The translations under genes and the position numbers were made by a program. Of a DNA stretch of 64,000 nucleotides, positions 1 through 63,123 are shown piece by piece. The notes under the pieces are model-generated. The model had not been told where the DNA came from. It worked only from the letters and a program-made list of their open reading frames with translations, and did no database searches. Source of the stretch: Myxococcota bacterium (lineage in GTDB: Bacteria; Myxococcota_A; Bradymonadia; UBA4248); NCBI GenBank assembly GCA_045643185.1, contig JAZUKH010000280.1, forward strand, positions 1,448 through 65,447, given 5' to 3'. Position 1 is the first letter of the stretch; each line of letters starts with the position of its first letter.

Positions 1-2457
1 CGCACAAACTTTTTGCTGGAAGAAGCAGCGGCTACACAAGCGCGCGGTGGCAATATTTATGATGATTTTATTCAGCCCTTCTATTTTGGAACACTGAATG
101 TGCCCGCCAATACACGTAATGCACGTGCCAAAGCGTTTGGAAAGATCCCTTTTTTGAACGGCGGTCTGTTTCAACCGACGGTAGAAGAAATCGAAAATCC
201 TCACCGGACCGTAGATAACGCAGTGTTTTTTGGAATTTGTGAGTCGATTCTGGGTGACTGGGAATTTACGGATCACGAGACACACCACGCCGATTCGGCG
301 CTCGACCCGATGATGCTTGGACACGTGTTTGAAATGCTGATGCCACGATCTCTTCGCGCACAAACCGGATCATTCTACACACCCATGAACCTGGTGCGTG
401 ACGTGACCCATCGTGCCATGAGCAACTGGCTGGAACGCCGATGCGGACTGACGAGCGCTGCGGCAGAAGCATTGATCGACCAAGGTCTGACAACAACATT
501 GAGCGATTCAGACATCGAACAGGTGCTGTCAGCGTTGACACAGGCGCGTATCCTCGATCTATCGGCTGGCTCCGGCGCGTTTTTGCAGGAAGCAAGCACC
601 GTACTTCATCGAGCCATTTCAGCACTGCACACCCGTCTGGGCTCGTCCGTCGCCCCTGCAGAGCTCGCCCGCGATATTTTGCTCAACAATATCTTTGGCG
701 TCGACATTCTGGAACCGGCCAACCGCATTTGTGAGCTGCGATTGTGGCTGACGACGCTTCAATATTACCAGACGGGCGCAGCGATCCCGCCGCTGCCAAA
801 TCTGGACATGAACATCCGATGCGGACATGCGCTCATCGACTTAACACAGTACGCTATGACCCTGGGCATCGACGCGACACGTCTGACCAATGCTCAGAGC
901 GCAGCCTTGCGCGCCCAATACGGTCGCGCAAACGGCCGCGAAAAACAACAACTCGCCCAGTCGATCGAAACCCTTGACCACGCCGTCGAACAACACCTCG
1001 TCGAAACGCTCAAGACAACACTACAAGCCAAAATCCATGACATTCAGTCGGCATTTCCGGCCAAAAACTTGTTTGGCGAAACGAACGTGATGCCCTTCAA
1101 CACGCGTCAGGCACTACAGGCACTGCAGGCACACCTCAACGCGCTCGAAAGCAAACACCTGAACGGCACGTTTTCGTTCGACGTGCATTATGCGGAGGTC
1201 ATGCGGGAAGGCGGCTTTGACATTATTTTGGGCAATCCGCCATGGTATTCGCTCCACACACGTGATTGCGATGAACAGGCGACACTGCGTCGTCTCTACC
1301 AAACGGCGCAAAAGCCCGACCAACAGCCAAACTTCACAAATCAGTCTATGGACATCAGCGCGCTTTTTGTCGAAAAGTCGCTCCAGGTGACGCGCCCTGG
1401 CGGCGTCGTCGCCATGCTTTTGCCCAACAAACTGTTTAACGCGCCAAGTTACGAACGTTTTCGTCAATACGTGGCGGTTCACGCTGAAACGGTCGATATG
1501 AAAGACTGGTCGGCCCTTTCGCCCTTCGACGCGGCGACCTACCCGGCCGACGTCATTCTGATGAAACGACATGCGCCATATCACGCAAACACAGGCTGGT
1601 TAACCGATCACGACGCCGTTCGGAGCGTTCTTTTGGAAGATACGCCATTGATGCGGAATGTCGCTTCAGACAACACGCTTCAATCACACTTCACGCTCAA
1701 ACGAGGTCTGCGCACAAGCGCCAACGATCTGTTTTTGTGCCGCCTCACCGAATCAGACGCTCAAACAGGCATTTCACAAGTCCAAGTAGCGTCAGAAGCC
1801 GAACCGGTCTCAATCGAAACGAGCCAACTGTACCCGATCATTCGTGGCACCGACATTCGTCCATTTCACGTGACGATCCAACACCACCTGATCTTGACAC
1901 ACACGCTGACCGATTTGAGCAAGCCGATGACAGATCTGCCAGCCCTGACCCAAAAGTGGTTTCAGCGTCACCAGACTCGACTTTCGTCACGTTCGGGCAT
2001 TCGACGTGGGCCTTACACAGCAATCTTTGGCGCTAGTCAATGTTTACGACGTCCCAAAGTCGTATGGCGAGACATTGGTCGAATGCTTTCGGCCGTTTTT
2101 GAACCGCGCGAAGACGTATTTGTGCTGAACACGGCCTATTACATACCCGTAGCTGACGAGCGCATGGGATATCTTCTGAGCGGTTTTTTGAACTCAACGC
2201 CGATCCGCGAATACTGCCAAAAGCGCGCGGAATATGCGCGCGGTGGCTATCGACGCTTTTTTGCCTGGTTGATCGGCGAAATACCATGGACGTTTGACCA
2301 AGCATTTCAAAACAGTGCGCTTGGTGAACGCATCATCGCGATTTCGAAAGAAGCGCACGCGATGGCGACGAGTCTGGGCATTCCGCTGAGGCTTCAGACA
2401 CAACTGGATCACTGTGTTTTGCGCGCGATGGCGCAGCAAGGAGCAAAATATGAATGA
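1..2457 (+). CDS. N6-adenine DNA methyltransferase, gamma-class (Eco57I/TaqI/PglX-like) with C-terminal TaqI_C-like specificity region; 5' end cut by window edge
   Basis: Frame is open from nt 1 (the track starts at TTG 13). Motifs: 'FLNGGLF' helper motif, SAM motif I 'ILDLSAGSGAFL', catalytic motif IV 'GNPPWY', and downstream 'LYPIIRGTDIRPFHV' resembling a TaqI_C target-recognition domain. Confidence 0.75.
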   Translation, partial: RTNFLLEEAAATQARGGNIYDDFIQPFYFGTLNVPANTRNARAKAFGKIPFLNGGLFQPTVEEIENPHRTVDNAVFFGICESILGDWEFTDHETHHADSALDPMMLGHVFEMLMPRSLRAQTGSFYTPMNLVRDVTHRAMSNWLERRCGLTSAAAEALIDQGLTTTLSDSDIEQVLSALTQARILDLSAGSGAFLQEASTVLHRAISALHTRLGSSVAPAELARDILLNNIFGVDILEPANRICELRLWLTTLQYYQTGAAIPPLPNLDMNIRCGHALIDLTQYAMTLGIDATRLTNAQSAALRAQYGRANGREKQQLAQSIETLDHAVEQHLVETLKTTLQAKIHDIQSAFPAKNLFGETNVMPFNTRQALQALQAHLNALESKHLNGTFSFDVHYAEVMREGGFDIILGNPPWYSLHTRDCDEQATLRRLYQTAQKPDQQPNFTNQSMDISALFVEKSLQVTRPGGVVAMLLPNKLFNAPSYERFRQYVAVHAETVDMKDWSALSPFDAATYPADVILMKRHAPYHANTGWLTDHDAVRSVLLEDTPLMRNVASDNTLQSHFTLKRGLRTSANDLFLCRLTESDAQTGISQVQVASEAEPVSIETSQLYPIIRGTDIRPFHVTIQHHLILTHTLTDLSKPMTDLPALTQKWFQRHQTRLSSRSGIRRGPYTAIFGASQCLRRPKVVWRDIGRMLSAVFEPREDVFVLNTAYYIPVADERMGYLLSGFLNSTPIREYCQKRAEYARGGYRRFFAWLIGEIPWTFDQAFQNSALGERIIAISKEAHAMATSLGIPLRLQTQLDHCVLRAMAQQGAKYE

Positions 2458-4417
2458 CATGACCTGGAATGACGCGCTTCAAGCGCGCTTTGCGCCATCG
2501 ACACCAACCGAGTTTAAAGACCAACCGAGTTTGAGCGAAGCTCAAGCGACGACGCTCGGTCATGCGCTTCGTATCATTGCGGATGACCACGCTGTGTTGT
2601 TGTGCGAAGACACGGGGACAGGCAAGACGTACGTCGCAGCGGCGTTAGCGAAGAACTTGTTGTCGCGCGGCACGATCGACAGCGTCGCGGTCGTCGGACC
2701 GGCCCATCTTTGTGGTATGTGGCGCACTGTACTGGCGCGTTTTGGGGTGAACGCGAGCTATTTGTCGTACCAAAGGGCGAGTTTGGGACATGAACCACGG
2801 GTACAGGGAAAAGCGTTGGTTTTGGTGGATGAGGCGCACGCGCTCAAAAACCCGACGACCCAAAGGTATCGCACACTCGCGCCGTTTTTGAAGCGTCACG
2901 CGCTTTGCCTGATCACCGCAACGCCGATCTCACTTGGTTTTGGCGACCTGAGTGCATTGCTTCAATTGTGTGGCCTGCCTGTCTCGATCCGGTCTGACAG
3001 CGACGCCCTGCGTATGTTTGCAATGTCACTCTGTCCGCGCTTTTTTGGCGCGCCGCTACGTCTCAATGAGGTCACCCACGAAGTGGTGCATCGCGCCATA
3101 CTTTTTGAGCTACCCAACGAGACCGAAGCCTTCGTCGATCTGTGTCTCGACACCCCCTGGCCCGTGTTTCAAAACGATCAAATGACGAATTCGACGCTGA
3201 TCCCACGCATTCTGCTTCACCGATTTCGCAGTCATCCGCACGCGAGCTTACTGTCGCTCAAACGCCTGCTTCGTTATTACGCGTCATGTCTTAAAACGGG
3301 CGCAATGCGTCCGATCACGCGCCGTGAATTCACGGCATTGTTTGGCCTTGAAGGCGTTCAACTGCCGCTCCCCTTCGGCCTTCGTGACGACGTCATGCCC
3401 ACTTCAGACGTACACACCATACTTGAACGCACGACGAGTCAGCTCTCGCGCATGATCGCGCTCGTGCAGACTATGCTTTCGTCCCCCGACATGCGCGTAC
3501 GAGCCCTGTTACCCGCCATTGCGGCGTCATCAGCCCCGGTCGTGCTGTTCACTCAATATGCCGACACCGCGCAGTTTGTGGCGCGTATCCTGGCTTCACA
3601 CACGGCGACTGGCTGCATCACCGCGTCGCAAGCGACGCTCAATGGACACACGATCGACCGTGACTTATTGCAAAACATGTTCGACCCCGATTTTGAATTA
3701 CCCGACACATGGCGAGCAGCCCATTTGCCCGTTCCACACGTATTGGTTGCGACCGATACACTGAGCGCTGGACACAATCTGCAACGAGCCGCCATTTTGT
3801 TCCACCTTGACCTGCCATGGAATCCAACCACGGTTCAGCAACGAGAAGGCCGTATTTTGCGCCATCACCAGCGTGCTGCGCGCGTCGAGCTGATCCGTCT
3901 TGAACCCCGTGCGATGCCTCCACGACTCGCAGCCATCGCTCAAAGCTTGACCGCGCGTTTTGAAGCGCGTCACGCGCTTCAAAACCAGTGGCACGACCCC
4001 TCGTTGATCACGAATCCAACGACGTTCATGCTCTCGGAGTCGCGTAAAATGCCTGGACTTTGGGCCAAGTTTGATGGCACTTGGTTGCCGATCCACCCAC
4101 AATTTGCGCGTGGTGCGCACATTTCACGTCGTCTTTCACTCCACGCTGCGTTGCTCCGCAGCGCACATCCCAATGCTTCCCAACTTCGCCGCCTCGTGGC
4201 CACACTCGCCCACGACCGCTACAACCCGTCCACGACGACGCGGCTATTGGCGCTTGAACGCTACGCCGAGATCACCGCACTTTGGCCCGCGCTCAACACG
4301 CCATTGAGCGACGACCCCGAAGCTGCTTTTGCTCAGATCGACGCACTACTCAACCAGTTTGCCGATCAACTGCCCGCCAACGCGACCGTCATGCTCGCAC
4401 AACGTGCCGCATGTTAA
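2450..4417 (+). CDS. SNF2-family (SF2) ATPase/helicase
   Basis: Walker A 'DTGTGKTYVAAA', SNF2-type 'VLVDEAHALKN' (DExH..KN), helicase motif VI 'QREGRILRHHQ'. Likely start is ATG 2450, preceded by an AGGAG RBS. Start overlaps the MTase stop (ATGAATGA), implying translational coupling. Confidence 0.7.
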   Translation: MNDMTWNDALQARFAPSTPTEFKDQPSLSEAQATTLGHALRIIADDHAVLLCEDTGTGKTYVAAALAKNLLSRGTIDSVAVVGPAHLCGMWRTVLARFGVNASYLSYQRASLGHEPRVQGKALVLVDEAHALKNPTTQRYRTLAPFLKRHALCLITATPISLGFGDLSALLQLCGLPVSIRSDSDALRMFAMSLCPRFFGAPLRLNEVTHEVVHRAILFELPNETEAFVDLCLDTPWPVFQNDQMTNSTLIPRILLHRFRSHPHASLLSLKRLLRYYASCLKTGAMRPITRREFTALFGLEGVQLPLPFGLRDDVMPTSDVHTILERTTSQLSRMIALVQTMLSSPDMRVRALLPAIAASSAPVVLFTQYADTAQFVARILASHTATGCITASQATLNGHTIDRDLLQNMFDPDFELPDTWRAAHLPVPHVLVATDTLSAGHNLQRAAILFHLDLPWNPTTVQQREGRILRHHQRAARVELIRLEPRAMPPRLAAIAQSLTARFEARHALQNQWHDPSLITNPTTFMLSESRKMPGLWAKFDGTWLPIHPQFARGAHISRRLSLHAALLRSAHPNASQLRRLVATLAHDRYNPSTTTRLLALERYAEITALWPALNTPLSDDPEAAFAQIDALLNQFADQLPANATVMLAQRAAC

Positions 4418-4456
4418 AACACTAGAGACACACTTTACTTTACATAAGACAACCCC

Positions 4457-4924
4457 ATGACCCACCGAACTAAACCTTTGTCCCCAACTGGCGGGCGCGT
4501 ATCAGAAGACGCGCATCTCCACCTATCCACCATGACGCGCACTGGGCGTCATGGCCGAATCGCCGAAAACCTCGTCGTCTGGTTTCTAAAAAACCGAGGC
4601 TACCACGTCGTCGACCGCAATTTTCGCACAACCACAGGTGAGATCGACATCATTGCGTTGGAACGCCGAAGCAATTTCCTGGCGATCCACTTTGTCGAAG
4701 TCAAATCCCGTTACGGTCACAGCCGTGCCATGCCCGAATACGCAGTGACCTATACCAAACAAAAGAAAATCTTTGGCACTGCGCGTTTTTGGATACTGAC
4801 CCATCGCTATCGTCGAACGGTCTACCACTTCGACATAGCTGCCGTCCTGATCCCCGATCGACGTTTACCACACATTCGTTATCTGCCTGACGCCTACTAT
4901 CCGCGTCAGGAGTTTGGTTGGTGA
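4457..4924 (+). CDS. yraN: YraN/UPF0102-family PD-(D/E)xK endonuclease-like protein (N-terminally extended; alternative start near 4532)
   Basis: Matches the YraN consensus: 'GRHGRIAENLVVWFLKNRGYHVVDRNFR..GEIDIIA', 'FVEVKSR', 'KQKKIFGTARFWI', 'FDIAAV'. Begins 40 bp after the helicase gene. Confidence 0.7.
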   Translation: MTHRTKPLSPTGGRVSEDAHLHLSTMTRTGRHGRIAENLVVWFLKNRGYHVVDRNFRTTTGEIDIIALERRSNFLAIHFVEVKSRYGHSRAMPEYAVTYTKQKKIFGTARFWILTHRYRRTVYHFDIAAVLIPDRRLPHIRYLPDAYYPRQEFGW

Positions 4925-4930
4925 ACGACG

Positions 4931-5503
4931 CTAGTTCACCGACATGAGCACATCCCCAAACACAGGGGCGTAGCTTTTGAACCAGTTTTCGGGAGCGACC
5001 GCGAAAAAGACCACATGATTCGCCTCCGTCGGGTGAATGATCGCGGCCATCAGTTGAACGCGTTCGCCCCCCACTCGTCCCGTATACTCGATCCTGTCGA
5101 CCGTTTCACCGTTGGCCAGCGTCACAGACTGGGTCGAAGCAGGCTTAAACTCGGCAAAGAACCAGTCATTGAGCGCCTGATTGAGTTGTTCTGGTGTCTG
5201 AACCGAGTCTGAGCGATAGACTGCGCCCATCACGGCCGAATAATTGACATCGACAAAAGCGACACCGCCTTGTTTCCCGTCACGATACTGCCATTCAGCC
5301 GGGAGTTTGAGAGCGATCTTGTCTTTTGACGTCACGTCCTTTAACTCAATCTGAGCGAGTTTTTGAACGATCGCTTGAGTTTCGTCAGGCACTTTGGCCT
5401 TGGCCAAAGGGGCAGAAACCAACAGAATGAAACTGACACAAAGAATGGGAAATAGAGAGCGTTTCATGAGAAAAGCCAAGGCGGCATAAGAAGTCTGTCG
5501 CAT
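4931..5503 (-). CDS. hypothetical exported (periplasmic) protein
   Basis: N-terminal signal peptide 'MKRSLFPILCVSFILLVSAPLAKA' (true start may be the internal Met). No recognisable catalytic motif. Confidence 0.5.
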   Translation of the reverse strand: MRQTSYAALAFLMKRSLFPILCVSFILLVSAPLAKAKVPDETQAIVQKLAQIELKDVTSKDKIALKLPAEWQYRDGKQGGVAFVDVNYSAVMGAVYRSDSVQTPEQLNQALNDWFFAEFKPASTQSVTLANGETVDRIEYTGRVGGERVQLMAAIIHPTEANHVVFFAVAPENWFKSYAPVFGDVLMSVN

Positions 5504-5530
5504 GACGCAGAATCGAGGTAAATGACAAAA

Positions 5531-5560
5531 AAAGCCCCGTTTAACGGGGCTTATTTGAAG
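5531..5560 (-). terminator. rho-independent terminator for gene 5575..6849
   Basis: Hairpin AGCCCCGTTAAACGGGGCT followed by a T-run on the minus strand, immediately 3' of the stop. Confidence 0.6.
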
Positions 5561-5574
5561 ATGACTATGCAGGA

Positions 5575-6849
5575 CTAGAGTTTTTCTTCGGTCGCGATGG
5601 CGTGAAGTTTACCCACGAGACCATCGGTGGACTTATCGATATCACCGAGGATCGCCATGATCTGCATCATACGTTTGCGATAGCGTTCGAGGGCGTTGGG
5701 GCTAGCAGCATAGAGTTTTGCACGATCAAGAAGCATAATCTCATCCGCAAAGACGACCTCTTCATTCCCGTTACGATCCTGAATAACGTACATCAGACGA
5801 TTCGGGACGGTGAGCCCATCGGGCACGGGTGAGCTTTCAACGAGATGTTTCTCTTTGATTTCTTTTTCGGACGGTGCTTTGAAGTTACGGGCGTCGGTTG
5901 CCTTGCCACTTTCTTTGAGCTGAGCAAAAACGCGATCGGCCTCTTCATCGTCGGTGATAGCACGTTTGACCTGATAGATCTCGGTAGAACGCATGGCTTC
6001 GACGGTACGATCAGCTTTAGGATAGGAAACTTTCTTAGGATCCATATCAGGATCGGTATCGACAATGGACATCATCTGAACCGGATCGATTTTGAGGGCA
6101 TAAACGATGTTTTTATCGGTTGCGCTATTTTGGCCAAGGAGAGTCTGAATTTCGTCCATATCGAGTTCAGTCTGTTCGATATGGGAATCGAGGATGCGGC
6201 CGAGAGTCATGGTGCCAGCAGCATAACCACGGATATCGCTAAGCGGGTTCTGGAGGGCATTACTGGCCATCGTGATGGCTTCAGCAGGGATATCCGCGCT
6301 GACATCGACCATGAAGTTTTTCTCTTTGTAGCGTTTGATGGTCTCGTTAAAGAATTTCTCGTTATATTCGAGAACGCCAGCGCCGAGAGATTCAGAGCGC
6401 TGTTTAAAGACCTGAGCGAATTCCTGGAAGTTGTCGACGCGGGGACGAATGGTCTCATCGATCGTTTTCGCGATATCGATACGGGCATTAACATCACTGC
6501 GATCGGAAAGAACGCCCTGCCAGAGGTAACCGATGAAAGCGCCGAAGATAAGGGCGATGATCACAACGGCAACGACCATGATATCTTTGCGTTTATCTTT
6601 GGCGTATTTGGAACCGAGGGAGGCGTCGACGAGACGACCGTCGAAGTCGAACATTTTCGCGCGTTCGCGTTCCTGTTCTTCCTCAATGATGATCTCCTGT
6701 TGCTGTTTCTGGGGAACTTTAAAGCCACCGCCGAAACCGCCGAAACCGCCACCACCTTTATTTGCGCCACCAAAGCCGCCACCGAAGCCACCGGCTTTAG
6801 ACGAACCAAATCCACTTCCATTATTTCCAGACTGATTATTGGAATTCAA
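5575..6849 (-). CDS. hypothetical single-pass membrane protein, Gly-rich N-terminus (paralog 1)
   Basis: N-terminal 'GGFGGGFGG' low-complexity region, TM helix 'IMVVAVVIIALIFGAFIGYLW', and a C-terminal domain homologous to 7092..8210 ('NRLMYVIQDRNGNEEVVFADEIMLLDR' vs 'NRVMYEVTDRRGNDNQLFADEVLLVDR'). Confidence 0.65.
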   Translation of the reverse strand: MNSNNQSGNNGSGFGSSKAGGFGGGFGGANKGGGGFGGFGGGFKVPQKQQQEIIIEEEQERERAKMFDFDGRLVDASLGSKYAKDKRKDIMVVAVVIIALIFGAFIGYLWQGVLSDRSDVNARIDIAKTIDETIRPRVDNFQEFAQVFKQRSESLGAGVLEYNEKFFNETIKRYKEKNFMVDVSADIPAEAITMASNALQNPLSDIRGYAAGTMTLGRILDSHIEQTELDMDEIQTLLGQNSATDKNIVYALKIDPVQMMSIVDTDPDMDPKKVSYPKADRTVEAMRSTEIYQVKRAITDDEEADRVFAQLKESGKATDARNFKAPSEKEIKEKHLVESSPVPDGLTVPNRLMYVIQDRNGNEEVVFADEIMLLDRAKLYAASPNALERYRKRMMQIMAILGDIDKSTDGLVGKLHAIATEEKL

Positions 6850-6939
6850 CGCTTCCTCCTGATCGGTTTAGCGACTGATACACAAATCGTTTGACGACAA
6901 AGATAGGTAATCTGCGGTCTAATCATTTTTTTAAGACAG

Positions 6940-6995
6940 ACCAAAACACGGCGTATATTCTATCGTTTTTTGGCCTTTTTCGTCAAGCTTCTTTG
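6940..6995 (-). promoter_or_regulatory. candidate sigma70-type promoter (TTGACG-N18-TAGAAT) for paralog 1
   Basis: On the coding strand: GCTTGACGAAAAAGGCCAAAAAACGATAGAATATAC. The same TTGACGAAAAA core recurs upstream of paralog 2. A perfect 8-bp palindrome GTGCGCTC-GCT-GAGCGCAC lies nearby at about 7016-7036. Confidence 0.4.
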
Positions 6996-7039
6996 CAAGG
7001 GAAGGGCGCATGAACGTGTGCGCTCGCTGAGCGCACCGA

Positions 7040-7078
7040 CAAAAAAAGGCTCCCTTTTGGGGAGCCTTTTGAAGGTTT
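7040..7078 (-). terminator. rho-independent terminator for gene 7092..8210
   Basis: AAAGGCTCCCCAAAAGGGAGCCTTTTTTT on the minus strand, directly 3' of the stop. Confidence 0.6.
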
Positions 7079-7091
7079 ACTCGTTTTGAAA

Positions 7092-8210
7092 CTATTCAGC
7101 GTCTTTATCTTTAATAAAGACGGAGAGGTCACTGCTGATATTCGCACTCACCTTACGGGTATCTTCAACGAGGCGTTTGATCTGATCGGTACGCTGATTG
7201 TAACGGTCGAGGGCATTCGCAGCCTTACCGAAAAGAAGCTTACGATCGACGAGAAGAACTTCATCGGCGAAAAGCTGATTGTCATTACCACGACGGTCGG
7301 TGACTTCGTACATCACGCGGTTCGGAAGATCAAACTCGGCAAGACTCTTCGATTCAGCTTTGGTCGGAACATAGTCACGATACTGACGCTGTGCCGTCGA
7401 CCAACCTTTCTCGGATTTATAGGCCGAATACATATCGCTAAGTTCCTGATTATCTTTCACAACATTGCGATATGTAAAGATGCTGACTACACCGTTCGCA
7501 AACTGATCACGTGGTGCTGCAGAACCCAGGTAATAAATACCATCGCTGTTGATCTGCATCGCATAGGTCACTTCAGAAACACCTTTCTTTTCGATCAACA
7601 TCTGGATCTCTTCCTCGTCGATGCGAGTTTCGTTGAGGTGGATGCTCAGAAGCTGCGTCAGAAGCATCGTGTTCGCAGAATATTCGCGAAGCGCTTTCAC
7701 AGGATTGGCCAAAGGATTACCATTAAGAAGAATGACTTCCGACGAAACCTCGCTCGACATATCGAGAAGGAAATCGAACGACTGGAAGTTGCTCATAACA
7801 GAGTCAAAAAGCGACTTGTTGTAGCTCTCCGCACCGGAAAGTTTGTCGAATTCCGTTGCAAATTTGTTGAAGTTCGCAACCTTGTTATCAACGGAACGTT
7901 TGATCGTGGAAGCTATGGTCGATTTACGTTTCTCGTCGTTATTGCTTTCGCTAATGTTACCAAAGATCAAACCAATGATCGCACCCACAATGGCAACGAC
8001 AACGATGATTGCGACGACCTTGATAACCTGTTTGTTATCGCTCCCCTGGCCAGTGTAGTTGAGCTGCTTTAACTCTTCCTCGTCAATGGGGACTTCAGGC
8101 GGGACATAGTTATAGTCATCCGGCTCCGGCTCATACTCAATGACAACTTCCGGTTCCAATTTTTTAACTTCATTGCTCGAAGAATTCAACACGGCCTCCT
8201 GAGCTCGCAA
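7092..8210 (-). CDS. hypothetical single-pass membrane protein (paralog 2 of 5575..6849)
   Basis: TM helix 'VIKVVAIIVVVAIVGAIIGLIFG'. C-terminal domain aligns with paralog 1. The antisense ORF 7086..8072 is rejected. Confidence 0.65.
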   Translation of the reverse strand: MRAQEAVLNSSSNEVKKLEPEVVIEYEPEPDDYNYVPPEVPIDEEELKQLNYTGQGSDNKQVIKVVAIIVVVAIVGAIIGLIFGNISESNNDEKRKSTIASTIKRSVDNKVANFNKFATEFDKLSGAESYNKSLFDSVMSNFQSFDFLLDMSSEVSSEVILLNGNPLANPVKALREYSANTMLLTQLLSIHLNETRIDEEEIQMLIEKKGVSEVTYAMQINSDGIYYLGSAAPRDQFANGVVSIFTYRNVVKDNQELSDMYSAYKSEKGWSTAQRQYRDYVPTKAESKSLAEFDLPNRVMYEVTDRRGNDNQLFADEVLLVDRKLLFGKAANALDRYNQRTDQIKRLVEDTRKVSANISSDLSVFIKDKDAE

Positions 8211-8309
8211 ATGTTCGTTATCTCGTCCGCGTCATCTGACTTGGCTTTCAAACAGAACGGTCATCAAATTTTCAATCTTGAACACTGTACTCGAAAAAAA
8301 CAAGTACAG

Positions 8310-8362
8310 AAAAAACCGCAGCTCTTTTACCCTAAAATAGCGTTTTTCGTCAAGCGTTTGGG
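8310..8362 (-). promoter_or_regulatory. candidate sigma70-type promoter (TTGACG -35) for paralog 2
   Basis: Coding strand carries CCAAACGCTTGACGAAAAACGCTATTTTAGGGTAAAAG, with the same 'GCTTGACGAAAAA' motif as upstream of paralog 1 at a similar distance (about 130 bp) from the start codon. Confidence 0.35.
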
Positions 8363-8385
8363 CGTTCCACGCCAACACTCAAAAC

Positions 8386-9705
8386 TTAATTTTTGCACGT
8401 AGTACACGTGGTTTTGCCGTCTTTGGTCTCGAATCGATAGAGCTTCGAATTACCATCAAGAAACACGTTCATAGGCGTCTTGGATGCCTGGTCGAGCTTG
8501 CGAATAAAGTCACGCGTTTCTTTCGGCAACGCCTTGTATTTAAGGAGCGGCTTAAGGGCCGCATCGCGCGTTTCGTTCGTATCACCAAGCCACGTGGCAT
8601 CAAGTCGAACATAATAGATCAGGGTTTGCGTCTTATCGGCCGAGGTGAACGTCCACGTCTCGCAAGACGACTTATTCTGTTCGGCATGGAACCAGGGCAC
8701 GAGCGCCTCGATGAGCGGACAAGCGTCTGGTGACTGCCACGACACGGCAACCGGCGCCTGAGCCGACTCCACCAGCGCACGTACGACCGGCTGCTCAAAC
8801 GCACGCTGTGCCCCTTCAAACGACGGCGGCAACTCTGCCTCGACTTTGTCCCCTGTCAACGTGAACGCCACAGAAAAATTCGTCATCAAAGACAGCGGAA
8901 TCGTGTATCGCCCCACGAGTTTGTCACAAGCCTCATTTTGGGTCTGATTACAGCCGATCTCAAGCGACGGCGACAGTTCCGGCGCATCCGCCTTGAGTTT
9001 GCGCGAATTCACGAGCGCCGTCAGCGCCTCGTCTTTCGCCACGATCGCCGCATAGTGGGGCAAGATCGGCGCGCCCGTCGCTACGGTCTCGTCAAGCGAT
9101 GCATCCAGCGGCTTCGTCAGATCAATAAACCCGGCCTTGTTATGCGCTGTTTCCTGAACAAACGCGTTCTTTTGAGCCAACAGATCCGTGACTGCCCTGC
9201 CGATCTCTCCCGTCAGCTGCACATAGCGCTTGCCATCGATCACGACGTTGAACGGCGCCAGGTTCAAACAATTCGATGCCGTCATCACGACATATTGGCG
9301 CCCGTCCTTCTCAAAACGAATGCGGATCTGTCGCCCCTTGTTATTGCCCTTTGACACGCTTCGACAGCCATAAATCGCGTCGGCTTCGATCAGGTCCTTA
9401 TCGACCGCCGCTTTCAGCGCATCGATCTTGGCTGCATCCACAGGCTGCTTGTCGTCATCCTCGTAGTTTTCACCAAACTTTTTGAACGTATAAAACACGT
9501 TTCGTTCATTTTTTTCAGGATGATGAATGACGACACTGATGCGCGCCGCCTTATCTTCAAGGCGAGTCACTGCAGCCTGCCCTGGTTCATCCGCATGCGG
9601 CGCAGGTTCCTGGGCTCGCGGTTGACACCCCGTAAACGCGACAAGCCCGATCAACACAGCGCCCACGCGCTGCCAAACCTCTGACATGAACCACGACCTT
9701 GTCAT
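8386..9705 (-). CDS. hypothetical lipoprotein
   Basis: Signal peptide with lipobox 'LVAFTGC'. No known domain recognised. Confidence 0.5.
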   Translation of the reverse strand: MTRSWFMSEVWQRVGAVLIGLVAFTGCQPRAQEPAPHADEPGQAAVTRLEDKAARISVVIHHPEKNERNVFYTFKKFGENYEDDDKQPVDAAKIDALKAAVDKDLIEADAIYGCRSVSKGNNKGRQIRIRFEKDGRQYVVMTASNCLNLAPFNVVIDGKRYVQLTGEIGRAVTDLLAQKNAFVQETAHNKAGFIDLTKPLDASLDETVATGAPILPHYAAIVAKDEALTALVNSRKLKADAPELSPSLEIGCNQTQNEACDKLVGRYTIPLSLMTNFSVAFTLTGDKVEAELPPSFEGAQRAFEQPVVRALVESAQAPVAVSWQSPDACPLIEALVPWFHAEQNKSSCETWTFTSADKTQTLIYYVRLDATWLGDTNETRDAALKPLLKYKALPKETRDFIRKLDQASKTPMNVFLDGNSKLYRFETKDGKTTCTTCKN

Positions 9706-9763: not shown

Positions 9764-10495
9764 CTACTTGAGCAATTGGAACATATTACGGAGCGCGTCA
9801 GCCGGTTCGGCATCGTACGTTTTATCAGCCTGAGCACACAGCGTGAACGCCAGAAGCTTGTGCGCCGAGGCATACACGAAAAGCGACGCAGTACAATCAC
9901 GATCGACCTCTTTTTCTTTGCCCACAAGGCTGGCGCTGTATTCCTCAACAAGGTTCTTGCACTTTTTGCCGGGCTTTGGATCCATGCAAAGATCGCGCTT
10001 CTGCACATTGTCCGTTGTGATTTTAGGCATGGCCAGCGTTTCACCCAGACTGTTCAAAACATTGATCGCAACATCCGATGCCTTGAGTTCAGCCGGGAAG
10101 TCAAGAATATCGACCGTGATCGTGGCAGGATTCTTGTCATCGGGTTCCACGGCGACCAGACGCTTCGCAGACGGCGTGATCTGCCAACGAAACGGAAAGG
10201 TCAACTCGCCAAACTCATCCGAGGTGTATGGCTGGTTGAGGGTGAGCGACGTCACCTTGACACCGACTTTAGGCGCAGGTGCCACTGGCGCTTCTTCCGG
10301 CGCTAGTTCAGCAACTTTTTCAGCCTGCTTCTGCTTTTCAGCCTGCTTTTGCTTTTCAGCCTGCTTCTGCTTTTCAGCATTTATGAGTAGCCCAAACTCC
10401 TCAGGCGGGACAGCAATAGCATCCGCCCAAACCAATGACGGCATCACGCAAAGGCCGACCCCAAGCCATAATCCCATCCAGATTCGTCGTTTCAT
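9764..10495 (-). CDS. hypothetical secreted protein with (AEKQKQ)n repeat
   Basis: Signal peptide 'MKRRIWMGLWLGVGLCVMPSLVWA'. An 18-bp tandem repeat (10312-10384) encodes AEKQKQAEKQKQAEKQKQ. Confidence 0.5.
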   Translation of the reverse strand: MKRRIWMGLWLGVGLCVMPSLVWADAIAVPPEEFGLLINAEKQKQAEKQKQAEKQKQAEKVAELAPEEAPVAPAPKVGVKVTSLTLNQPYTSDEFGELTFPFRWQITPSAKRLVAVEPDDKNPATITVDILDFPAELKASDVAINVLNSLGETLAMPKITTDNVQKRDLCMDPKPGKKCKNLVEEYSASLVGKEKEVDRDCTASLFVYASAHKLLAFTLCAQADKTYDAEPADALRNMFQLLK

Positions 10496-18150: not shown

Positions 18151-19557
18151 CTATTTGGCGAGTAGCTGTCCGCAGGCGCCACCCACGTTGACGCCACGGG
18201 CTTCTCGAAGCGTGACAAGGCATCCGGCGTCCTGCATGATCTTAATAAACGCCTGGATGCGCTCATTCGTCGGTGCCTGAAACACGAGACGCGGCGTAGG
18301 ATTGTATGGAATCACGTTGATGTTGTGCGGCAAGTCCTTGGCAAACTCGGCCAGACGCCGCGCATCGTCGTCGGAATCGTTGACATCGCGCAACAAAACG
18401 TATTCGAGCAAAACTTTTTCGTGCGAGCGATAAGGCCAGTCGACGAGCGCCTCGTGGATCTGAGCAAGCCCAAAGCGTTTGGTGATGGGCATGAGTTTGG
18501 CACGAACTTCGTCGGTCGTGGCATTGATGCTGATGGCCAGATTGGGACGCACCTTGGCGTTTTTGAGGCGCGGCAGCTCACTCAGCACGCCAGACGTCGA
18601 CAAGGTCATGCGCACCGGCGCAATGTTCAAACCGCACTCGCAAGAAAGCACCTCGATCGCGCGCAGCACGTTGTCGAGGTTCATCAACGCTTCGCCCATG
18701 CCCATGAACACGAGGTTGACCGAGTGCGAACGTTCAGGCCCGTAATTTTTGATCGCCCAAATGACCTGTTGCACGATCTCCCCCGCGGTGAGATTGCGTC
18801 GCAAACCGAGCGTCGCCGTAGCGCAAAACGCGCAGTTCATGGCGCAGCCGACCTGTGACGAGAGGCACAGCGTGACGCGCGGCGACTTGACGTCGCGCGG
18901 CATGTGAATGGTTTCAACCCGAGCGCCGTCTTTCAGCTCGTAAATGATGCGCGTCGTGCCGTCGTCGGCGCTTCGCGTCTCGGCAATGCGCATCGGCGTC
19001 GTGTCAAACGCCGTTTCAATCAGCATGGCAGGCTTGTGACCGATATCGGGCGCGTCGTCGACGTAGGTCCACGGCCTTTGCAGCGCGCGAAACAGGTGTT
19101 CGCCGCCAGCACGCGTGGGCAGTGCCTCCAGATCTTCGGGCAAAGCCGCATAGATCGAGGGATTCTGAGCCAATGCGTTTTGGACGGCTGGCAAAAACTC
19201 ACGATCAGCTTCGGTAAGGTCGAGCTTTTCGGCCTCGTCGATCGTAAACCAACCCACGGCCTGGTGTTCATTGAGCGTCATCTGGTCGGATTCGAGCCAC
19301 ACGCGGTAAAGGTGCACGCGGATCGTGCGATCGGGGTCATGCGTTTCGCGCGTCGTAACGTACTGCGTCGGATAGGCGGTAAGCCCAAGTTCCTCGTGCA
19401 GCTCACGGGCCAGCGCGTCTTCGGGACGTTCACCGGGTTCAATTTTGCCGCCGGGAAACTCCCATTGGCCGCCATGAGACTTTTGAGCACCGCGCTGGGC
19501 GGCAAAAAAACGCCCTCGTCTGAGGATGAGGGCGGCAACGACTTCTATTTCAAGCAT
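18151..19557 (-). CDS. rlmN: fusion protein: N-terminal NUDIX (MutT-like) hydrolase plus C-terminal radical-SAM rRNA/tRNA m2A methyltransferase RlmN
   Basis: NUDIX box 'GGKIEPGERPEDALARELHEELGL'. RlmN motifs 'SSQVGCAMNCAFCATATLGLRRNLTAGEIVQQV' and C-terminal 'GGACGQL'. Confidence 0.85.
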   Translation of the reverse strand: MLEIEVVAALILRRGRFFAAQRGAQKSHGGQWEFPGGKIEPGERPEDALARELHEELGLTAYPTQYVTTRETHDPDRTIRVHLYRVWLESDQMTLNEHQAVGWFTIDEAEKLDLTEADREFLPAVQNALAQNPSIYAALPEDLEALPTRAGGEHLFRALQRPWTYVDDAPDIGHKPAMLIETAFDTTPMRIAETRSADDGTTRIIYELKDGARVETIHMPRDVKSPRVTLCLSSQVGCAMNCAFCATATLGLRRNLTAGEIVQQVIWAIKNYGPERSHSVNLVFMGMGEALMNLDNVLRAIEVLSCECGLNIAPVRMTLSTSGVLSELPRLKNAKVRPNLAISINATTDEVRAKLMPITKRFGLAQIHEALVDWPYRSHEKVLLEYVLLRDVNDSDDDARRLAEFAKDLPHNINVIPYNPTPRLVFQAPTNERIQAFIKIMQDAGCLVTLREARGVNVGGACGQLLAK

Positions 19558-21100: not shown

Positions 21101-22894
21101 TTAGTTCTTACCAATAACAATGATGAGTACCACAGCCGCCAAAATGACGATGAGCAAACAAATGCAGGCCACAAGTGCCCCAAAGTGCCATTCGTAAAGT
21201 TCGTCAATGATCTGATTGAACTTACGCTTAAACGCGCCAGCCGCACGCCCCACGGGCGATTCAACCAGACGCGTCACAGGTTCGGACAGCATAATGCGCT
21301 CAAACCACGCCATTTCACCCAAACGCGTCGAACGCATGGAGCGACCGATCATCCTGCTCGACAGAAACTTCGTCTTCTGTTCGTGAAAAACAGGTGGCGG
21401 CTCTTCATCCTGTGTCTGAGGATGCCATTCAGCATTACGATCCATTCGACTGATCTGGTGATTCTGTAAAAACTTGGTTTTCTGCGAATGAAAAACCGGC
21501 GGCGGATCCTCGTCCTCCCCCACTCGCCTGTTCAGGCAATTCGCCGGAAGACGCGGTGCCTCGATGGTCGGTTGACGATACGACGCAGATACCTGACAAT
21601 TCTGAACCTGATGAGGATTCACGATGCCAGCATCGTTCGTCTTCATATATTCGTTCATTTCGTCTTCCGAACCAGTGCAGAACATGAGCGTATTGGCGCT
21701 GCTGATATCTTCGATGACGGGCTGATCCAGGTTGACCGTAGCATCCGCGTCATCACTGACTGGACGACGCGGATACAATTCAGGATGCGCCATCGACGGC
21801 GGTAACGGCAAATTGAGACGACTCATGTCGTCGGTCGGCGCGTTGTCATCTTCAGCAAACTCGTCGTAAACGACCGTGCCCTGACTCGACGTGGCGCCAA
21901 CTTCATCCTCCGGCGTCTTGAAGATCGCCGTGTTGAACGCACTAATGTCTTCCGAAGAATACTCGGACAGGTTAATGCTAGTCTCGTTGGTCGCAGGAAA
22001 AACTGGGACGTTCGACGACACCTTGTCGTAAACGTCAAACCACGCTTTGTAACGCGTCTCGATGTCTTTCAGGTCGTTGATCATCTCTTGCGCATTGGCA
22101 TAGCGCATCGAGACATCCTTGGCGATCGCCTTCCTGAAAACATCAAACAACGGCCCCTCACAATACGGCTTGGGGATCTCGGGAAACTCTTTGAGCTGAC
22201 GCTGAATGACATCGCTCAAATTCTTGCCTGCAAATGCCTGTTTGCCCGTCAACATCTCAAAAAAGACGAGACCGATCGCATAGATATCGCTGTGAGGACC
22301 GAGGTTTTTGCCAAAGAACTGTTCAGGCGGCATGTACTGCGGCGTCCCAAAACCGACCGAATTTTGGAAAAATTGCTTGGTCAGGTCGGGTTGCGTGCCG
22401 TCAAAGGCTTTTGCGATACCGAAGTCGAGCAATTTCACGGTGTCACAATCGTAGCCCTCGTGAATCAGCATAATGTTGGCCGGCTTCAAATCGCGGTGAA
22501 TAATTGACTGGTTGTGCGCTTCGCCAAGGGCGCTCAAAACCTGTGTAATGACCTTGACCGAGTAGCTGTATGAGAGCGGCGCATTTTGTTTAATGGCATT
22601 TTCGAGGTTGATGCCGTTGACGAACTCCATGACGAGGTAGAGCGTGCCATCGGGCAAAGCGCCGTATTCATAGACCTGAACGATGTTCGGGTGACAGAGC
22701 TTGGACGAACACGAAACCTCGCGTAAAAAGCGCTGCTGTTGGTCGGGGAGCTGATTGGTATCACCTGGGCGCGAGCATTTGATGCCGACGTCGACACCCG
22801 TGTTGATATCCCGGGCACGAAAGACATCGCCGAAGCCACCATCACCGATCTTATCCTCAATGATGTAATGAGATAACTGTTCCCCAATATTCAT
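21101..22894 (-). CDS. Ser/Thr protein kinase (Hanks-type) with C-terminal TM anchor
   Basis: 'IGDGGFGDVFRARD', 'HRDLKPANIML' and 'DFGIAKAF' are kinase motifs. C-terminal TM 'LVACICLLIVILAAVVLIIVIG'. Confidence 0.9.
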   Translation of the reverse strand: MNIGEQLSHYIIEDKIGDGGFGDVFRARDINTGVDVGIKCSRPGDTNQLPDQQQRFLREVSCSSKLCHPNIVQVYEYGALPDGTLYLVMEFVNGINLENAIKQNAPLSYSYSVKVITQVLSALGEAHNQSIIHRDLKPANIMLIHEGYDCDTVKLLDFGIAKAFDGTQPDLTKQFFQNSVGFGTPQYMPPEQFFGKNLGPHSDIYAIGLVFFEMLTGKQAFAGKNLSDVIQRQLKEFPEIPKPYCEGPLFDVFRKAIAKDVSMRYANAQEMINDLKDIETRYKAWFDVYDKVSSNVPVFPATNETSINLSEYSSEDISAFNTAIFKTPEDEVGATSSQGTVVYDEFAEDDNAPTDDMSRLNLPLPPSMAHPELYPRRPVSDDADATVNLDQPVIEDISSANTLMFCTGSEDEMNEYMKTNDAGIVNPHQVQNCQVSASYRQPTIEAPRLPANCLNRRVGEDEDPPPVFHSQKTKFLQNHQISRMDRNAEWHPQTQDEEPPPVFHEQKTKFLSSRMIGRSMRSTRLGEMAWFERIMLSEPVTRLVESPVGRAAGAFKRKFNQIIDELYEWHFGALVACICLLIVILAAVVLIIVIGKN

Positions 22895-30955: not shown

Positions 30956-31246
30956 TGAGAACCCCTGTATGAAACAGCGTCTGAAGGACGTGTTGTAAGG
31001 CGTAAGGACATAACATGGTATGAAAAAAGGCCCGCGATGCCGTAAGCCATCACGTTAAACGACCCTGCAAAGCAGGTGGGCCTCGGTATAGAGTCGGAAA
31101 GTATCCTGGACTAGCAGGCGCGCTCGCCGGATCTCTAGGGGATGAGTCCCAATGATTAACGCACAAGGGGTTTAGCATAAATCGGCGTTTCGCGAACACC
31201 GCAGGCTTTACGCGTTTATAACACGAACGAGCTCAATGGGGATAAA

Positions 31247-31280
31247 AAAAAAGCCTTCTGTGACCAGAAGGCTTTTATTT
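31247..31280. terminator. rho-independent terminator 3' of rplS
   Basis: AAAAAAAAAGCCTTCTGGTCACAGAAGGCTTTTATTTTT hairpin directly after the L19 stop. Confidence 0.6.
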
Positions 31281-31308
31281 TTCGCAAAGCTTTTAAGCAG
31301 CCGGACGA

Positions 31309-48572: not shown

Positions 48573-48646
48573 CGGAGCATAGCGCAGCCTGGTAGCGCGC
48601 TTGCATGGGGTGCAAGAGGTCGCAGGTTCAAATCCTGTTGCTCCGA
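48573..48646 (+). tRNA. tRNA-Pro (anticodon GGG)
   Basis: Cloverleaf folds: acceptor CGGAGCA/TGCTCCG, D-arm GCGC-AGCCTGGTA-GCGC, anticodon arm CTTGC-ATGGGGT-GCAAG (G37), T-arm GCAGG-TTCAAAT-CCTGT, discriminator A. Confidence 0.85.
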
Positions 48647-48668: not shown

Positions 48669-48742
48669 CGGAGCATAGCGCAGCCTGGTAGCGCGCTTGC
48701 ATGGGGTGCAAGAGGTCGCAGGTTCAAATCCTGTTGCTCCGA
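48669..48742 (+). tRNA. tRNA-Pro (anticodon GGG), identical tandem copy
   Basis: Exact duplicate of the first tRNA, 22 bp downstream. Followed by the terminator GCCCATCGCAAGATGGGCTTTTTTTT at 48779-48806. Confidence 0.85.
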
Positions 48743-62894: not shown

Positions 62895-63123
62895 ATTTCC
62901 TCCTATCACAAACAAAATTGTTTGTGCTCGTTTCGGATCCGCGCCCCCTATGGGCGCTATATACACAAATACACTATATTATATGCAATGCACGCTTCAA
63001 CTTCAACGACTAAGCACGCATTTTGACCATGGTTAGCCCAATTGCCTATTATTTTAGGCGCGGCTATTTCATACGCCGCGCCCGCGTCGCTTCTCCCTCG
63101 CTTGAGCCGCCCGTACCGGACGG

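Follow-up and report, generated by a model that had tools for sequence, protein, structure and literature searches.

The window, by which we mean the whole 64-kb stretch of DNA that was analysed, carries on its minus strand two neighbouring genes, B and A, and a third gene, C, that follows A in the direction of transcription. The genes and the sites from which A and B are expected to be translated are:

7092-8189, minus strand: gene B, 365 aa, TTG start; acidic N-terminal tail, membrane helix and C-terminal domain homologous to that of A.
5575-6849, minus strand: gene A, 424 aa, TTG start; Gly-rich (GGFGG) tail, membrane helix and C-terminal domain homologous to that of B.
4931-5503, minus strand: gene C, 190 aa, signal peptide, secreted; directly downstream of A.
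8182-8202, minus strand: translation initiation region of B, TCAGGAGG-N5-TTGAATTC; direct repeat D5, 86% identical to the copy at A.
6842-6862, minus strand: translation initiation region of A, TCAGGAGG-N5-TTGAATTC.

The first-pass annotation had described A and B as minus-strand genes of 424 and 372 aa. Both open reading frames were recovered, but the length of B had to be revised, since its longest open reading frame (7092-8210) does encode 372 aa and yet the start common to all orthologues is the TTG at 8189, 21 nt further downstream, which yields a protein of 365 aa. The NCBI orthologue/self match of B (P0052) has this same length of 365 aa. The TTG start of B is preceded by AGGAGG-N5, the combination AGGAGG-N5-TTG is kept in all loci, and the pattern GGAGG-N3-7-TTGAAYTY was found solely at the starts of A and B, both in the window and in the first 16 related loci. 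Translation of both genes would begin at a conserved weak TTG start placed behind a strong Shine-Dalgarno sequence. That the two genes are tandem paralogues with a common architecture was borne out by BLASTP (28% identity over about 317 aligned aa, E = 2e-39), each protein consisting of a tail, one hydrophobic helix and the C-terminal domain.

The segments of the two proteins that could be placed on the DNA are:

6514-6582, minus strand: membrane helix of A (residues 90-112), hydrophobic segment IMVVAVVIIALIFGAFIGYLWQG, lying within the AlphaFold2 helix 86-154.
7956-8024, minus strand: membrane helix of B (residues 56-78 in the 365-aa numbering), hydrophobic segment IKVVAIIVVVAIVGAIIGLIFGN, aligning with the membrane helix of A.
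5695-6132, minus strand: predicted SH3-like barrel of A (residues 240-385), inserted between bundle helices 3 and 4.

The tail of A is 25% Gly with a net charge of +2 and that of B is acidic with a net charge of about -10; this difference is systematic, as the mean tail charge over 54 sequences was +2.0 (sd 1.7) for A versus -10.9 (sd 2.4) for B. Three motifs are conserved in the tails: an N-terminal MNSS..[DN]L.ELKA[RK][LM], an IIEE patch and, beside the membrane, [FY]D[FY]..VD. The tails (55-200 aa) lack a signal peptide and a KDKRKD patch precedes the membrane helix of A, which points to an N-in, C-out topology with cytoplasmic tails and a periplasmic C-terminal domain. The positive-inside argument has little force for B and likewise for the distant relatives described below, in the latter because of a conserved Arg just after their membrane helix.

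In the full-length AlphaFold2 model of A (pLDDT 76.8), residues 1-66 mostly had pLDDT values below 50 and were treated as disordered, followed by a helix at 86-154 that includes the membrane segment, an alpha/beta insert at 248-379 and C-terminal helices at 386-419. For the C-terminal domain of about 300 aa the prediction is a bundle of four helices, with an SH3-like beta-barrel that interrupts it between helices 3 and 4 and is modelled at its membrane-distal end. The motif PNRLMY...FADEI.L.DR falls within the barrel region of A. Two residues, H223 and R393, do not vary anywhere in the family, and at least 90% of members keep T227, R389 and Y390; judging from the order of the helices, these residues would also be located at the membrane-distal end. 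AlphaFold modelling of this domain had been proposed in the first-pass annotation as a way of identifying it; searches with the predicted structure gave generic matches only and the best four-helix-bundle matches were de novo designed bundles.

The putative expression signals of the two genes are:

8343-8355, minus strand: 13-mer GCTTGACGAAAAA, copy upstream of B, exact match.
8324-8353, minus strand: predicted sigma-70-type promoter of B (TTGACG 8348-8353, 18-nt spacer, TAAAAG 8324-8329).
8285-8309, minus strand: hairpin CTGTACT-N11-AGTACAG inside the predicted leader of B, near its 5' end.
7044-7070, minus strand: intrinsic terminator of B, 11-bp stem (core GGCTCCC/GGGAGCC) followed by a T7 run.
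7018-7036, minus strand: perfect 8-bp palindrome GTGCGCTC-AGC-GAGCGCAC, directly after the terminator of B and before the promoter of A.
6976-6988, minus strand: 13-mer GCTTGACGAAAAA, copy upstream of A, exact match.
6957-6986, minus strand: predicted sigma-70-type promoter of A (TTGACG 6981-6986, 18-nt spacer, TAGAAT 6957-6962).
5532-5552, minus strand: intrinsic terminator of A (terminator scan), 9-bp stem followed by a T-run, RNA fold z = -4.0.

The 13-mer GCTTGACGAAAAA occurs exactly twice in the window, both times on the minus strand, where the chance expectation for a given 13-mer is about 0.002. A shared motif had been claimed at about -130 before both genes; the motif is indeed shared but its position is not, the -35 hexamer of A standing 137 nt and that of B 164 nt upstream of the conserved TTG. 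The promoter of A gave 10/12 matches in the promoter scan and is the sole TTGACG-N17-19-TANNNT site in the window. Expression would then be driven by sigma-70-type promoters close to consensus, and the transcripts would carry leaders of about 100-130 nt (predicted at about 128 nt for B and about 100 nt for A).

Comparison with the related loci supported the promoter of B, in that cTTGACG-N18-TAnAnT was present 119-164 nt upstream of B in 13 of the 14 loci by regular expression and in L006 by eye, and the TTGACG -35 box before B was kept in all loci. The part of the 13-mer conserved across loci is the hexamer with its flanking C only. By this phylogenetic footprinting the proposed sigma-70-type promoter holds for B throughout, but for A it holds only in the sub-clade of the window (the window, L003, L005 and L006). 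The same restriction applies to the claim that each gene has its own terminator: in the window a hairpin and a T-run follow both genes, and the terminator of B is found in that same sub-clade only. A 91-nt stretch including the B terminator and the adjacent 7018-7036 hairpin had an RNA fold z of -4.68, with 0/200 shuffles as stable, and terminator hairpins after B were also seen by eye in L003 and L006. In the other clade the spacer between B and A, about 380 nt in L013, is mostly short and without a TTGACG box, and B and A therefore look co-transcribed there.

Both palindromes noted earlier were located in the window, the one at 7018-7036 as a separate hairpin in the RNA fold and CTGTACT-N11-AGTACAG as a hairpin in the minimum-energy fold of the B leader, but their sequences are not conserved across loci and they were rejected as conserved operators since they are not kept in L003, L005 and L006. 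At the same place near the 5' end of the leader a seemingly different hairpin was observed by eye in other loci. The idea of an RNA structure or shared regulatory RNA element at the initiation region was likewise abandoned: RNAalifold gave no consensus structure for 28 sequences (single-sequence z between -1.0 and +1.5), the leaders as wholes were not unusually stable (z = -0.68 for B and -0.16 for the other leader) and Rfam returned only noise at E up to 1. A local hairpin in which the Shine-Dalgarno sequence GGAGGGA pairs with UUCUUCC recurs in many A orthologues, without statistical support.

B followed by A, adjacent and on one strand, was found in all 14 distinct related loci, all of them in gut or rumen Myxococcota genomes, with orthologue identities of 42-70% and with A and B forming separate clades in a tree. 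A and B are real genes under selection. The search for the family in relatives that had been suggested earlier was carried out as a profile search and returned 95 relatives in 1.84 billion representative proteins, of which about 65 are distant. These distant relatives begin with an N-terminal DLxDLKxRLGL motif, followed by a Pro/Ala/Gly linker, the membrane helix and the domain; they are single-copy in the six loci read, indicating that pairing is not intrinsic to the family. The few with a named organism belong to Myxococcota metagenome-assembled genomes and to cultured Bradymonadales, including Lujinxingia sediminis (WP_127779328.1), and all members seen were annotated as hypothetical. A literature search found no paper mentioning the motif DLKARLG, nor anything on these genes in the literature on gut Myxococcota genomes. 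The family in Myxococcota and Bradymonadales is real, conserved and previously undescribed. The first-pass suggestion of tandem membrane proteins from an uncharacterised envelope or signalling family is supported.

The domain had gone unrecognised in the first-pass annotation and it did so again here: Pfam, NCBIfam and PADLOC gave no family match for A or B or among 74 family members (Pfam cut-offs of E up to 1 for A and B and up to 0.01 for the 74 members), and a PDB sequence profile search gave no match.

The gene content around the pair was examined for hints of a function. C lies directly downstream of A in eight further distinct loci (tblastn), nine with the window, and its alignment shows a signal peptide and the invariant residues W71, W174 and Y178. 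C is likely to be co-transcribed with A by read-through, given that only about 28 nt separate the terminator of A from the ATG of C. No family match was found for C in Pfam or NCBIfam. It is confined to the gut clade, and a possible occurrence in distant relatives was rejected because the 210-aa gene downstream in L017 is unrelated. The pair is neighboured in the window by C and by genes for a 439-aa lipoprotein, a secreted 243-aa protein and UPF0102, the last lying between this gene array and a methylase and a helicase that match DrmMI and DrmD (PADLOC). Similar genes adjoin the pair in L003, not in L001/L002. A role in anti-phage defence, prompted by these DISARM-like neighbours, was rejected, as PADLOC gave no match for A and B and only noise for C. 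In the distant loci L019/L020, L022, L023 and L024 (Lujinxingia), the family gene is adjoined by a divergent gene for a PKD/CARDB protein of about 1300 aa and by a metallophosphoesterase gene, and in L019/L020 and L024 the same cluster includes PilZ and CDP-alcohol phosphatidyltransferase genes. Near the pair, no gene for a conserved cytoplasmic partner was found.

Four other explanations of the pair were weighed. The proteins could be ligand sensors: a small anionic ligand would bind to the periplasmic bundle, much as happens in Tar or NarX, and the signal would reach the cytoplasm when the tail motifs sequester or release a regulator, or through regulated proteolysis, in the manner of anti-sigma factors. 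The invariant His and Arg and the near-invariant Thr, Arg and Tyr are candidates for an anion-binding site, and the short conserved tail motifs would suit such an output, but no output domain (HAMP, kinase, methyl-accepting or anti-sigma) was detected by Pfam and NCBIfam in the 74 members, and no anti-sigma domain of the zinc-binding, RskA, RsgI or RseA type was detected by these databases in A, B and 72 relatives. Pfam scans of the window neighbours and the annotated Pfam domains in related loci revealed no adjacent sigma-factor gene and no regulator domain, with the exception of PilZ in L019/L020 and L024, at a distance of a few genes. There was also no Pfam match to 4HB_MCP, TarH or HBM in A, B and the 74 members. 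Unlike chemoreceptors, where the bundle lies between two membrane helices and connects to a transmitter in the cytoplasm, and unlike bundles of the Tar, NarX and Adeh_2942 type in general, A and B lack a second membrane helix and a cytoplasmic signalling domain and have the predicted barrel inserted between helices 3 and 4. The structural resemblance to such bundles is generic, de novo designed bundles scoring higher, and we regard a ligand sensor as unlikely.

A less probable explanation is that A and B are an alignment or stator part of a trans-envelope machine (PilN/PilO-, GspL/GspM- or DotF-like) encoded away from the rest of that machine. PilN/PilO and GspL/GspM are likewise adjacent paralogous single-pass proteins, presumed heteromers, in which a short N-terminal motif in the cytoplasm is conserved and the periplasmic region combines helices with an alpha/beta part, and B gave a weak NCBIfam match to IcmG/DotF (15.4 bits, E = 0.011). 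This score is, however, far below the cut-off of 200 bits, no Pfam match to PilN, PilO or GspM was obtained, A and B are twice as long as PilN or PilO with another predicted fold, and in the loci read the pair has no pilus, secretion or motor genes next to it, nor any pilus or secretion genes over a distance of 10 kb. A match to FliL (16 bits, NCBIfam cut-off 140-187 bits) covered the membrane-helix region only.

It is still less plausible that invariant His residues from two subunits ligate haem or a metal, with Arg-Tyr-x-x-Arg holding the propionates, the protein then serving in redox reactions or haem handling in the periplasm. Throughout the family, adjacent bundle helices bear the invariant His and Arg and a near-invariant Arg and Tyr, but this is pure pattern reasoning; a CXXCH motif and a second conserved axial ligand are absent, and no redox gene is conserved nearby. 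Finally, a paralogous cage or regulator of a membrane protease like HflK/HflC was rejected as largely refuted and has the slightest probability of the four: HflK and HflC, SPFH family regulators of FtsH, are also tandem paralogous N-in single-pass inner-membrane proteins of similar size (about 420 and 335-365 aa) in which one partner has a Gly/Asn/Ser-rich N-terminal tail, and the first 30 residues of A resemble E. coli HflK (NQxGNNG...GSSKxGG, 18/32 identical, pairwise E = 2e-4), but this likeness is confined to a low-complexity stretch not kept in most A orthologues, the SPFH/Band 7 domain (PF01145) gave no Pfam match, profile-to-sequence hhalign against HflK gave a probability of 0.8%, the predicted fold starts with a long helix and has no SPFH alpha/beta domain, the gene order is reversed with the acidic partner first in B-A, and no ftsH or hflX gene lies nearby.

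Two further groups of envelope proteins differ from the pair. Unlike the single-pass proteins of the FtsN, DamX and RodZ type that connect the cytoplasm with the cell wall, and unlike bacterial SH3-like domains that bind the stem peptide or cross-bridge of peptidoglycan, A and B have no Pfam match to SPOR, LysM, helix-turn-helix or SH3_3, SH3_4 and SH3_5 domains, and FtsN and DamX have nothing that corresponds to the helical stalk of A and B. The DUF3829 proteins of Bacteroides (PDB 4yjw and 3rh3) are lipoproteins without an inserted barrel, whereas A and B are anchored by a membrane helix and have no PF12889 match.

The explanation that we favour, with somewhat less than even confidence, is that A and B, as paralogous subunits, together make up an envelope protein of the inner membrane that belongs to an undescribed family and acts in coupling or scaffolding across the membrane; we infer that the pair is a two-subunit scaffold or sensor spanning the inner membrane. 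The bundle would be a stalk holding the barrel, and the cluster of His/Thr and Arg-Tyr-x-x-Arg at its base, away from the membrane. This head might bind an envelope ligand or partner, with peptidoglycan, a peptide ligand or the secreted C as candidates, and the tail motifs may recruit a cytoplasmic partner. That C, with its signal peptide, follows A would fit an envelope context for the pair. The conserved pairing and the complementary tails, one slightly basic and Gly-rich and the other strongly acidic, are what suggest that A and B hetero-oligomerise, and if they do so the role of the pair would be one of coupling or scaffolding across the inner membrane and not of catalysis.

A broader and more doubtful proposal concerns the family as a whole, which would be an inner-membrane-spanning module consisting of an N-terminal docking helix (DLxDLKxRLGL), a long disordered linker, a membrane helix, a periplasmic four-helix stalk and an SH3-like head with the invariant His/Arg site. 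Such a module might link a partner in the cytoplasm physically with a structure of the envelope or surface, for which the PKD/CARDB protein of about 1300 aa is a candidate. In gut-adapted Myxococcota the gene may have been duplicated, giving two subunits, one with an acidic and one with a Gly-rich tail, that form an obligate heteromer, with the secreted partner C being gained.

The family is new in having no Pfam, NCBIfam or PADLOC model and no relative of solved structure by sequence. The finding is useful rather than startling, as its modules are familiar. The invariant His and Arg, the N-terminal motif, the promoter layout and the non-ATG start are conserved from cultured Bradymonadales to uncultured rumen and colon Myxococcota, a pattern that fits a housekeeping envelope component in a group noted for complex envelopes, gliding and predation. 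Defining the family would provide a new database entry and, Lujinxingia being cultured, a tractable candidate for myxobacterial cell biologists, and the gut clade offers a natural experiment in how one gene can divide into two subunits with different tails.

Genes A and B were found to form a conserved, expressed-looking pair. Each encodes a membrane protein with a single transmembrane pass, conserved motifs in the tail and a domain predicted to consist of a bundle plus a barrel. The ORF list gave the following features for the pair, and C is the secreted-protein gene 3' of A.

5575-6849, minus strand: gene A, ORF of 424 aa
7092-8210, minus strand: gene B, longest ORF, 372 aa
6842-6862 and 8182-8202: start regions of A and B, with TTG behind AGGAGG
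4931-5503, minus strand: gene C, 190 aa, 3' of A
5845-6894 and 7086-8072, plus strand: long ORFs overlapping A and B

The two adjacent minus-strand genes encode proteins that are 28% identical across about 317 residues (BLASTP, E = 2e-39) and are therefore paralogues, in agreement with the first-pass annotation, which had described a tandem pair. The single membrane helix and the tails it had reported were also recovered, with one hydrophobic helix in each protein and a tail that is Gly-rich with GGFGG in A and acidic with many Glu-Pro in B. The overlapping plus-strand ORFs are most likely antisense shadows, given that homologues, Shine-Dalgarno sequences and terminators all lie on the minus strand.

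In every related locus A and B start with TTG AAT TC(N), with AGGAGG 4-5 nt before, and a TTG start after AGGAGG-N5 was present in 28/28 A and B genes of the gut clade (gut and rumen Myxococcota loci with the pair, L001-L016). Within the window and the first 16 related loci (4-21 kb each), the pattern GGAGG-N3-7-TTGAAYTY had no match other than the starts of A and B, and the start of B was therefore placed at 8189. Thus B stands as an adjacent minus-strand gene but is 365 aa long rather than the 372 aa first given; the protein-database copy of B (P0052) is likewise 365 aa. The start regions of the two genes are nearly identical (GCTYAGGAGG..TTGAATTCTTC) and the first residues, MNSS(S/N)NN, are common to both paralogues, although identity over the remaining sequence is just 28%. 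Among more distant relatives the start, again behind a Shine-Dalgarno sequence, was TTG in L017 and L019 and GTG in L022 and L023, so that a non-ATG start is used throughout the loci examined. For the start region, RNAalifold returned no consensus structure, z-scores of single-sequence folds were not significant and Rfam gave no match.

Word-indexed searches returned 50 relatives of A and 36 of B, none with a Pfam domain and all named only 'hypothetical protein' except for one apparently spurious ATP-synthase label (P0084, a B orthologue called 'F0F1-type ATP synthase membrane subunit c' by JGI, which looks like a database error). A scan of one genome per GTDB species gave 12 loci, titled as Myxococcota, Myxococcales or 'Proteobacteria' MAGs and sampled from cattle colon, goat and roe-deer omasum, buffalo rectum and similar sources. 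One Myxococcota-type pair, in L016 (CAVGZQ010000018.1), was binned as 'Bacteroidaceae bacterium' and is probably mis-binned. The search of relatives showed that B immediately precedes A, in the same orientation, in 14/14 distinct loci. The window and 8 further distinct loci have gene C next to A, also on its strand, and then a convergent UPF0102 gene; gene C encodes a signal peptide and then a mature N-terminus (P)D/E-S/T-H-x-I-I-Q-K-L-A, and had no match in family databases. Given that the B-A order is constant, C is frequent and the outer neighbours differ from locus to locus, the conserved unit is B-A and usually B-A-C.

Several other genes of the window were recorded. At 13-4417 (plus strand) an Eco57I/MmeI-type N6-adenine methylase (814 aa) overlaps an SNF2 helicase (667 aa); the best PADLOC matches were type IIG restriction-methylase and DrmMI for the methylase and DrmD for the helicase, and the two together resemble a defence pair, either DISARM-like or type IIG. 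In L003 this gene pair adjoins the B-A-C array. Two further envelope proteins without a family match, a 439-aa putative lipoprotein with an AFTGC lipobox (8386-9705, minus) and a secreted protein of 243 aa that has AEKQKQ repeats (9764-10495, minus), adjoin B in the window and also, but in reversed orientation, in L005 and L006. Elsewhere are a 468-aa ORF with a NUDIX hydrolase domain fused to a radical SAM domain (18151-19557, minus), a Ser/Thr protein kinase (21101-22894), a protein of 1464 aa that has an FHA domain at its N-terminus and a long coiled coil at its C-terminus (38807-43201, minus), tandem tRNA-Pro(GGG) genes with equal scores, 22 nt apart (48573-48646 and 48669-48742, plus), and a 3456-aa ORF whose sole Pfam match was DUF4215 (8 repeat stretches, E = 3e-104; 52596-62966, minus).

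The 13-mer GCTTGACGAAAAA, proposed as a common promoter motif, has exactly two copies in the window, one upstream of each gene, but only its cTTGACG is conserved and the rest is specific to the window's genome. The layout cTTGACG-N18-TAnAnT was found by regular expression 119-164 nt 5' of the TTG start of B in 13/14 loci, and was seen by eye in the 14th, L006, with TAAGAC as -10 box. The stricter CTTGACG-N16-20-GTARRNT had no other match in the loci where it is present, and TTGACG also lies about 105-130 nt 5' of the start in the distant L022 and L023. This conservation supports the predicted promoter and long leader. Upstream of A the layout is restricted to the window's sub-clade (window, L003, L005, L006), with TAGAAT or TACAAT as -10 box, and the A promoter is the sole match to TTGACG-N17-19-TANNNT in the window. 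Loci of the other clade have no TTGACG box in the B-A spacer, whose length is mostly about 90-130 nt (about 380 nt in L013), an arrangement suggestive of co-transcription; the claim of a promoter for each gene thus applies to the sub-clade but not beyond it.

Separate terminators for A and B were borne out in the window by RNA folding (z = -4.0 for A; z = -4.68 for B together with the neighbouring perfect palindrome at 7018-7036, as two separate hairpins), and B has its own terminator also in L003 and L006, as judged by eye. Both palindromes noted nearby are present in the window, but neither sequence is kept in the closest loci. Many B leaders seem, on reading by eye, to carry some 5'-end hairpin. 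Leaders of the sub-clade (window 8311-8320 and 6934-6946; L005, L006) open with a GCGGTTTTTT-like sequence that, in the B leader fold, pairs with the Shine-Dalgarno region via G-U wobbles; the stability of the overall fold did not exceed that of shuffled sequence (z = -0.68). A 6S RNA gene lies at 31025-31210 (minus; Rfam, 51.8 bits), and GCTTTGCGAAAAA, with 2 mismatches to the 13-mer, is found at 31278-31290, about 70 nt upstream of it.

A HMMER profile of A and B orthologues was searched against 1.84 billion representative proteins (E <= 1e-3) and gave 95 matches, of which about 65 were distant proteins, 270-510 aa long. Their parts follow the order seen in A and B: an N-terminal motif, e.g. 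MATRRRGGADLDDLKARLGL or (K)PDLSDLKARLGL, a Pro/Ala/Gly-rich linker, a juxtamembrane [FY]D..DP..K.P, the membrane helix and the domain. The gut clade keeps the N-terminal motif in degraded form (NLDELKARM in most A, NLNGLKAKL in some B orthologues). Among 74 sequences H223 and R393 (A numbering) are invariant and T227, R389 and Y390 at least 90% conserved, and 0/74 had a consistent Pfam or NCBIfam match. Where a member carried a source name, this was a Myxococcota MAG or one of the cultured Bradymonadales, among them Lujinxingia sediminis (WP_127779328.1). The loci read each have a single copy of the distant gene, and in a crude neighbour-joining tree A and B formed separate clades with a single-copy intermediate group next to A. 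In the following distant clusters the family gene is divergent beside a PKD/CARDB protein of 1265-1379 aa, with a metallophosphoesterase gene beyond it.

L019/L020, about 660-9614: cluster continuing with three hypothetical genes, a PilZ protein and a CDP-alcohol phosphatidyltransferase
L022, 1078-7803: PKD/CARDB cluster
L023, 2654-7701: PKD/CARDB cluster
L024 (Lujinxingia), 715-9624: cluster continuing as in L019/L020

This synteny is lost in the gut clade. It is conceivable, if rather doubtful, that in Myxococcota and Bradymonadales the family serves as a trans-envelope coupling module and is tied to the giant PKD/CARDB surface protein encoded next to it.

The C-terminal domain was examined in an AlphaFold2 model of A (54-sequence alignment, mean pLDDT 76.8), which predicted a bundle with an inserted alpha/beta region.

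Residues 1-66: mostly pLDDT <50, treated as disordered
Residues 86-154: helix containing the membrane segment 90-112
Up to residue 238: further helices
Residues 248-379: alpha/beta region
Residues 386-419: C-terminal helices

By helix order, A would be a four-helix bundle whose helices 3 and 4 are separated by an inserted domain at the membrane-distal end. The lack of a signal peptide, the tails of 55-200 residues and the KDKRKD patch before the membrane helix of A suggest an N-in, C-out topology. Tail charge differs systematically, +2.0 (sd 1.7) in A vs -10.9 (sd 2.4) in B.

We tentatively favour, at somewhat less than even chances, a heteromeric complex of A and B in the inner membrane, in which a ligand or partner in the envelope, possibly C, would meet a putative SH3-like head and the His/Arg cluster presented by the periplasmic stalk, and the cytoplasmic tail motifs would dock a partner; from such an arrangement a scaffold, coupler or sensor, not an enzyme, would follow. 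The predicted stalk is akin to four-helix-bundle sensors and the putative SH3-like head to SH3-bearing cell-wall binders. A ligand sensor signalling via sequestration of a regulator is unlikely, given that the pair has neither an output domain nor an adjacent regulator. The layout is also akin to PilN/PilO and HflK/HflC, but a PilN/PilO-like or DotF-like machine component is improbable, as neither machine genes in the neighbourhood nor a sequence match were found. A bundle that binds haem or a metal, a reading drawn from the residue pattern, is very improbable. Least probable is an HflK/HflC-like cage, since the SPFH domain was tested for and is absent; residues 5-33 of A (NQSGNNGSGFGSSKAGG...) resemble the N-terminus of E. 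coli HflK (NQPGNNGQDRDPWGSSKPGG...), with identity at 18/32 positions, in a low-complexity stretch that most A orthologues do not conserve. Membership tests by sequence placed the pair in none of the known families compared, and A and B are best described as an undescribed family assembled from familiar modules. It is a genuine family, conserved across Myxococcota and Bradymonadales, and testing is feasible in one cultured carrier.
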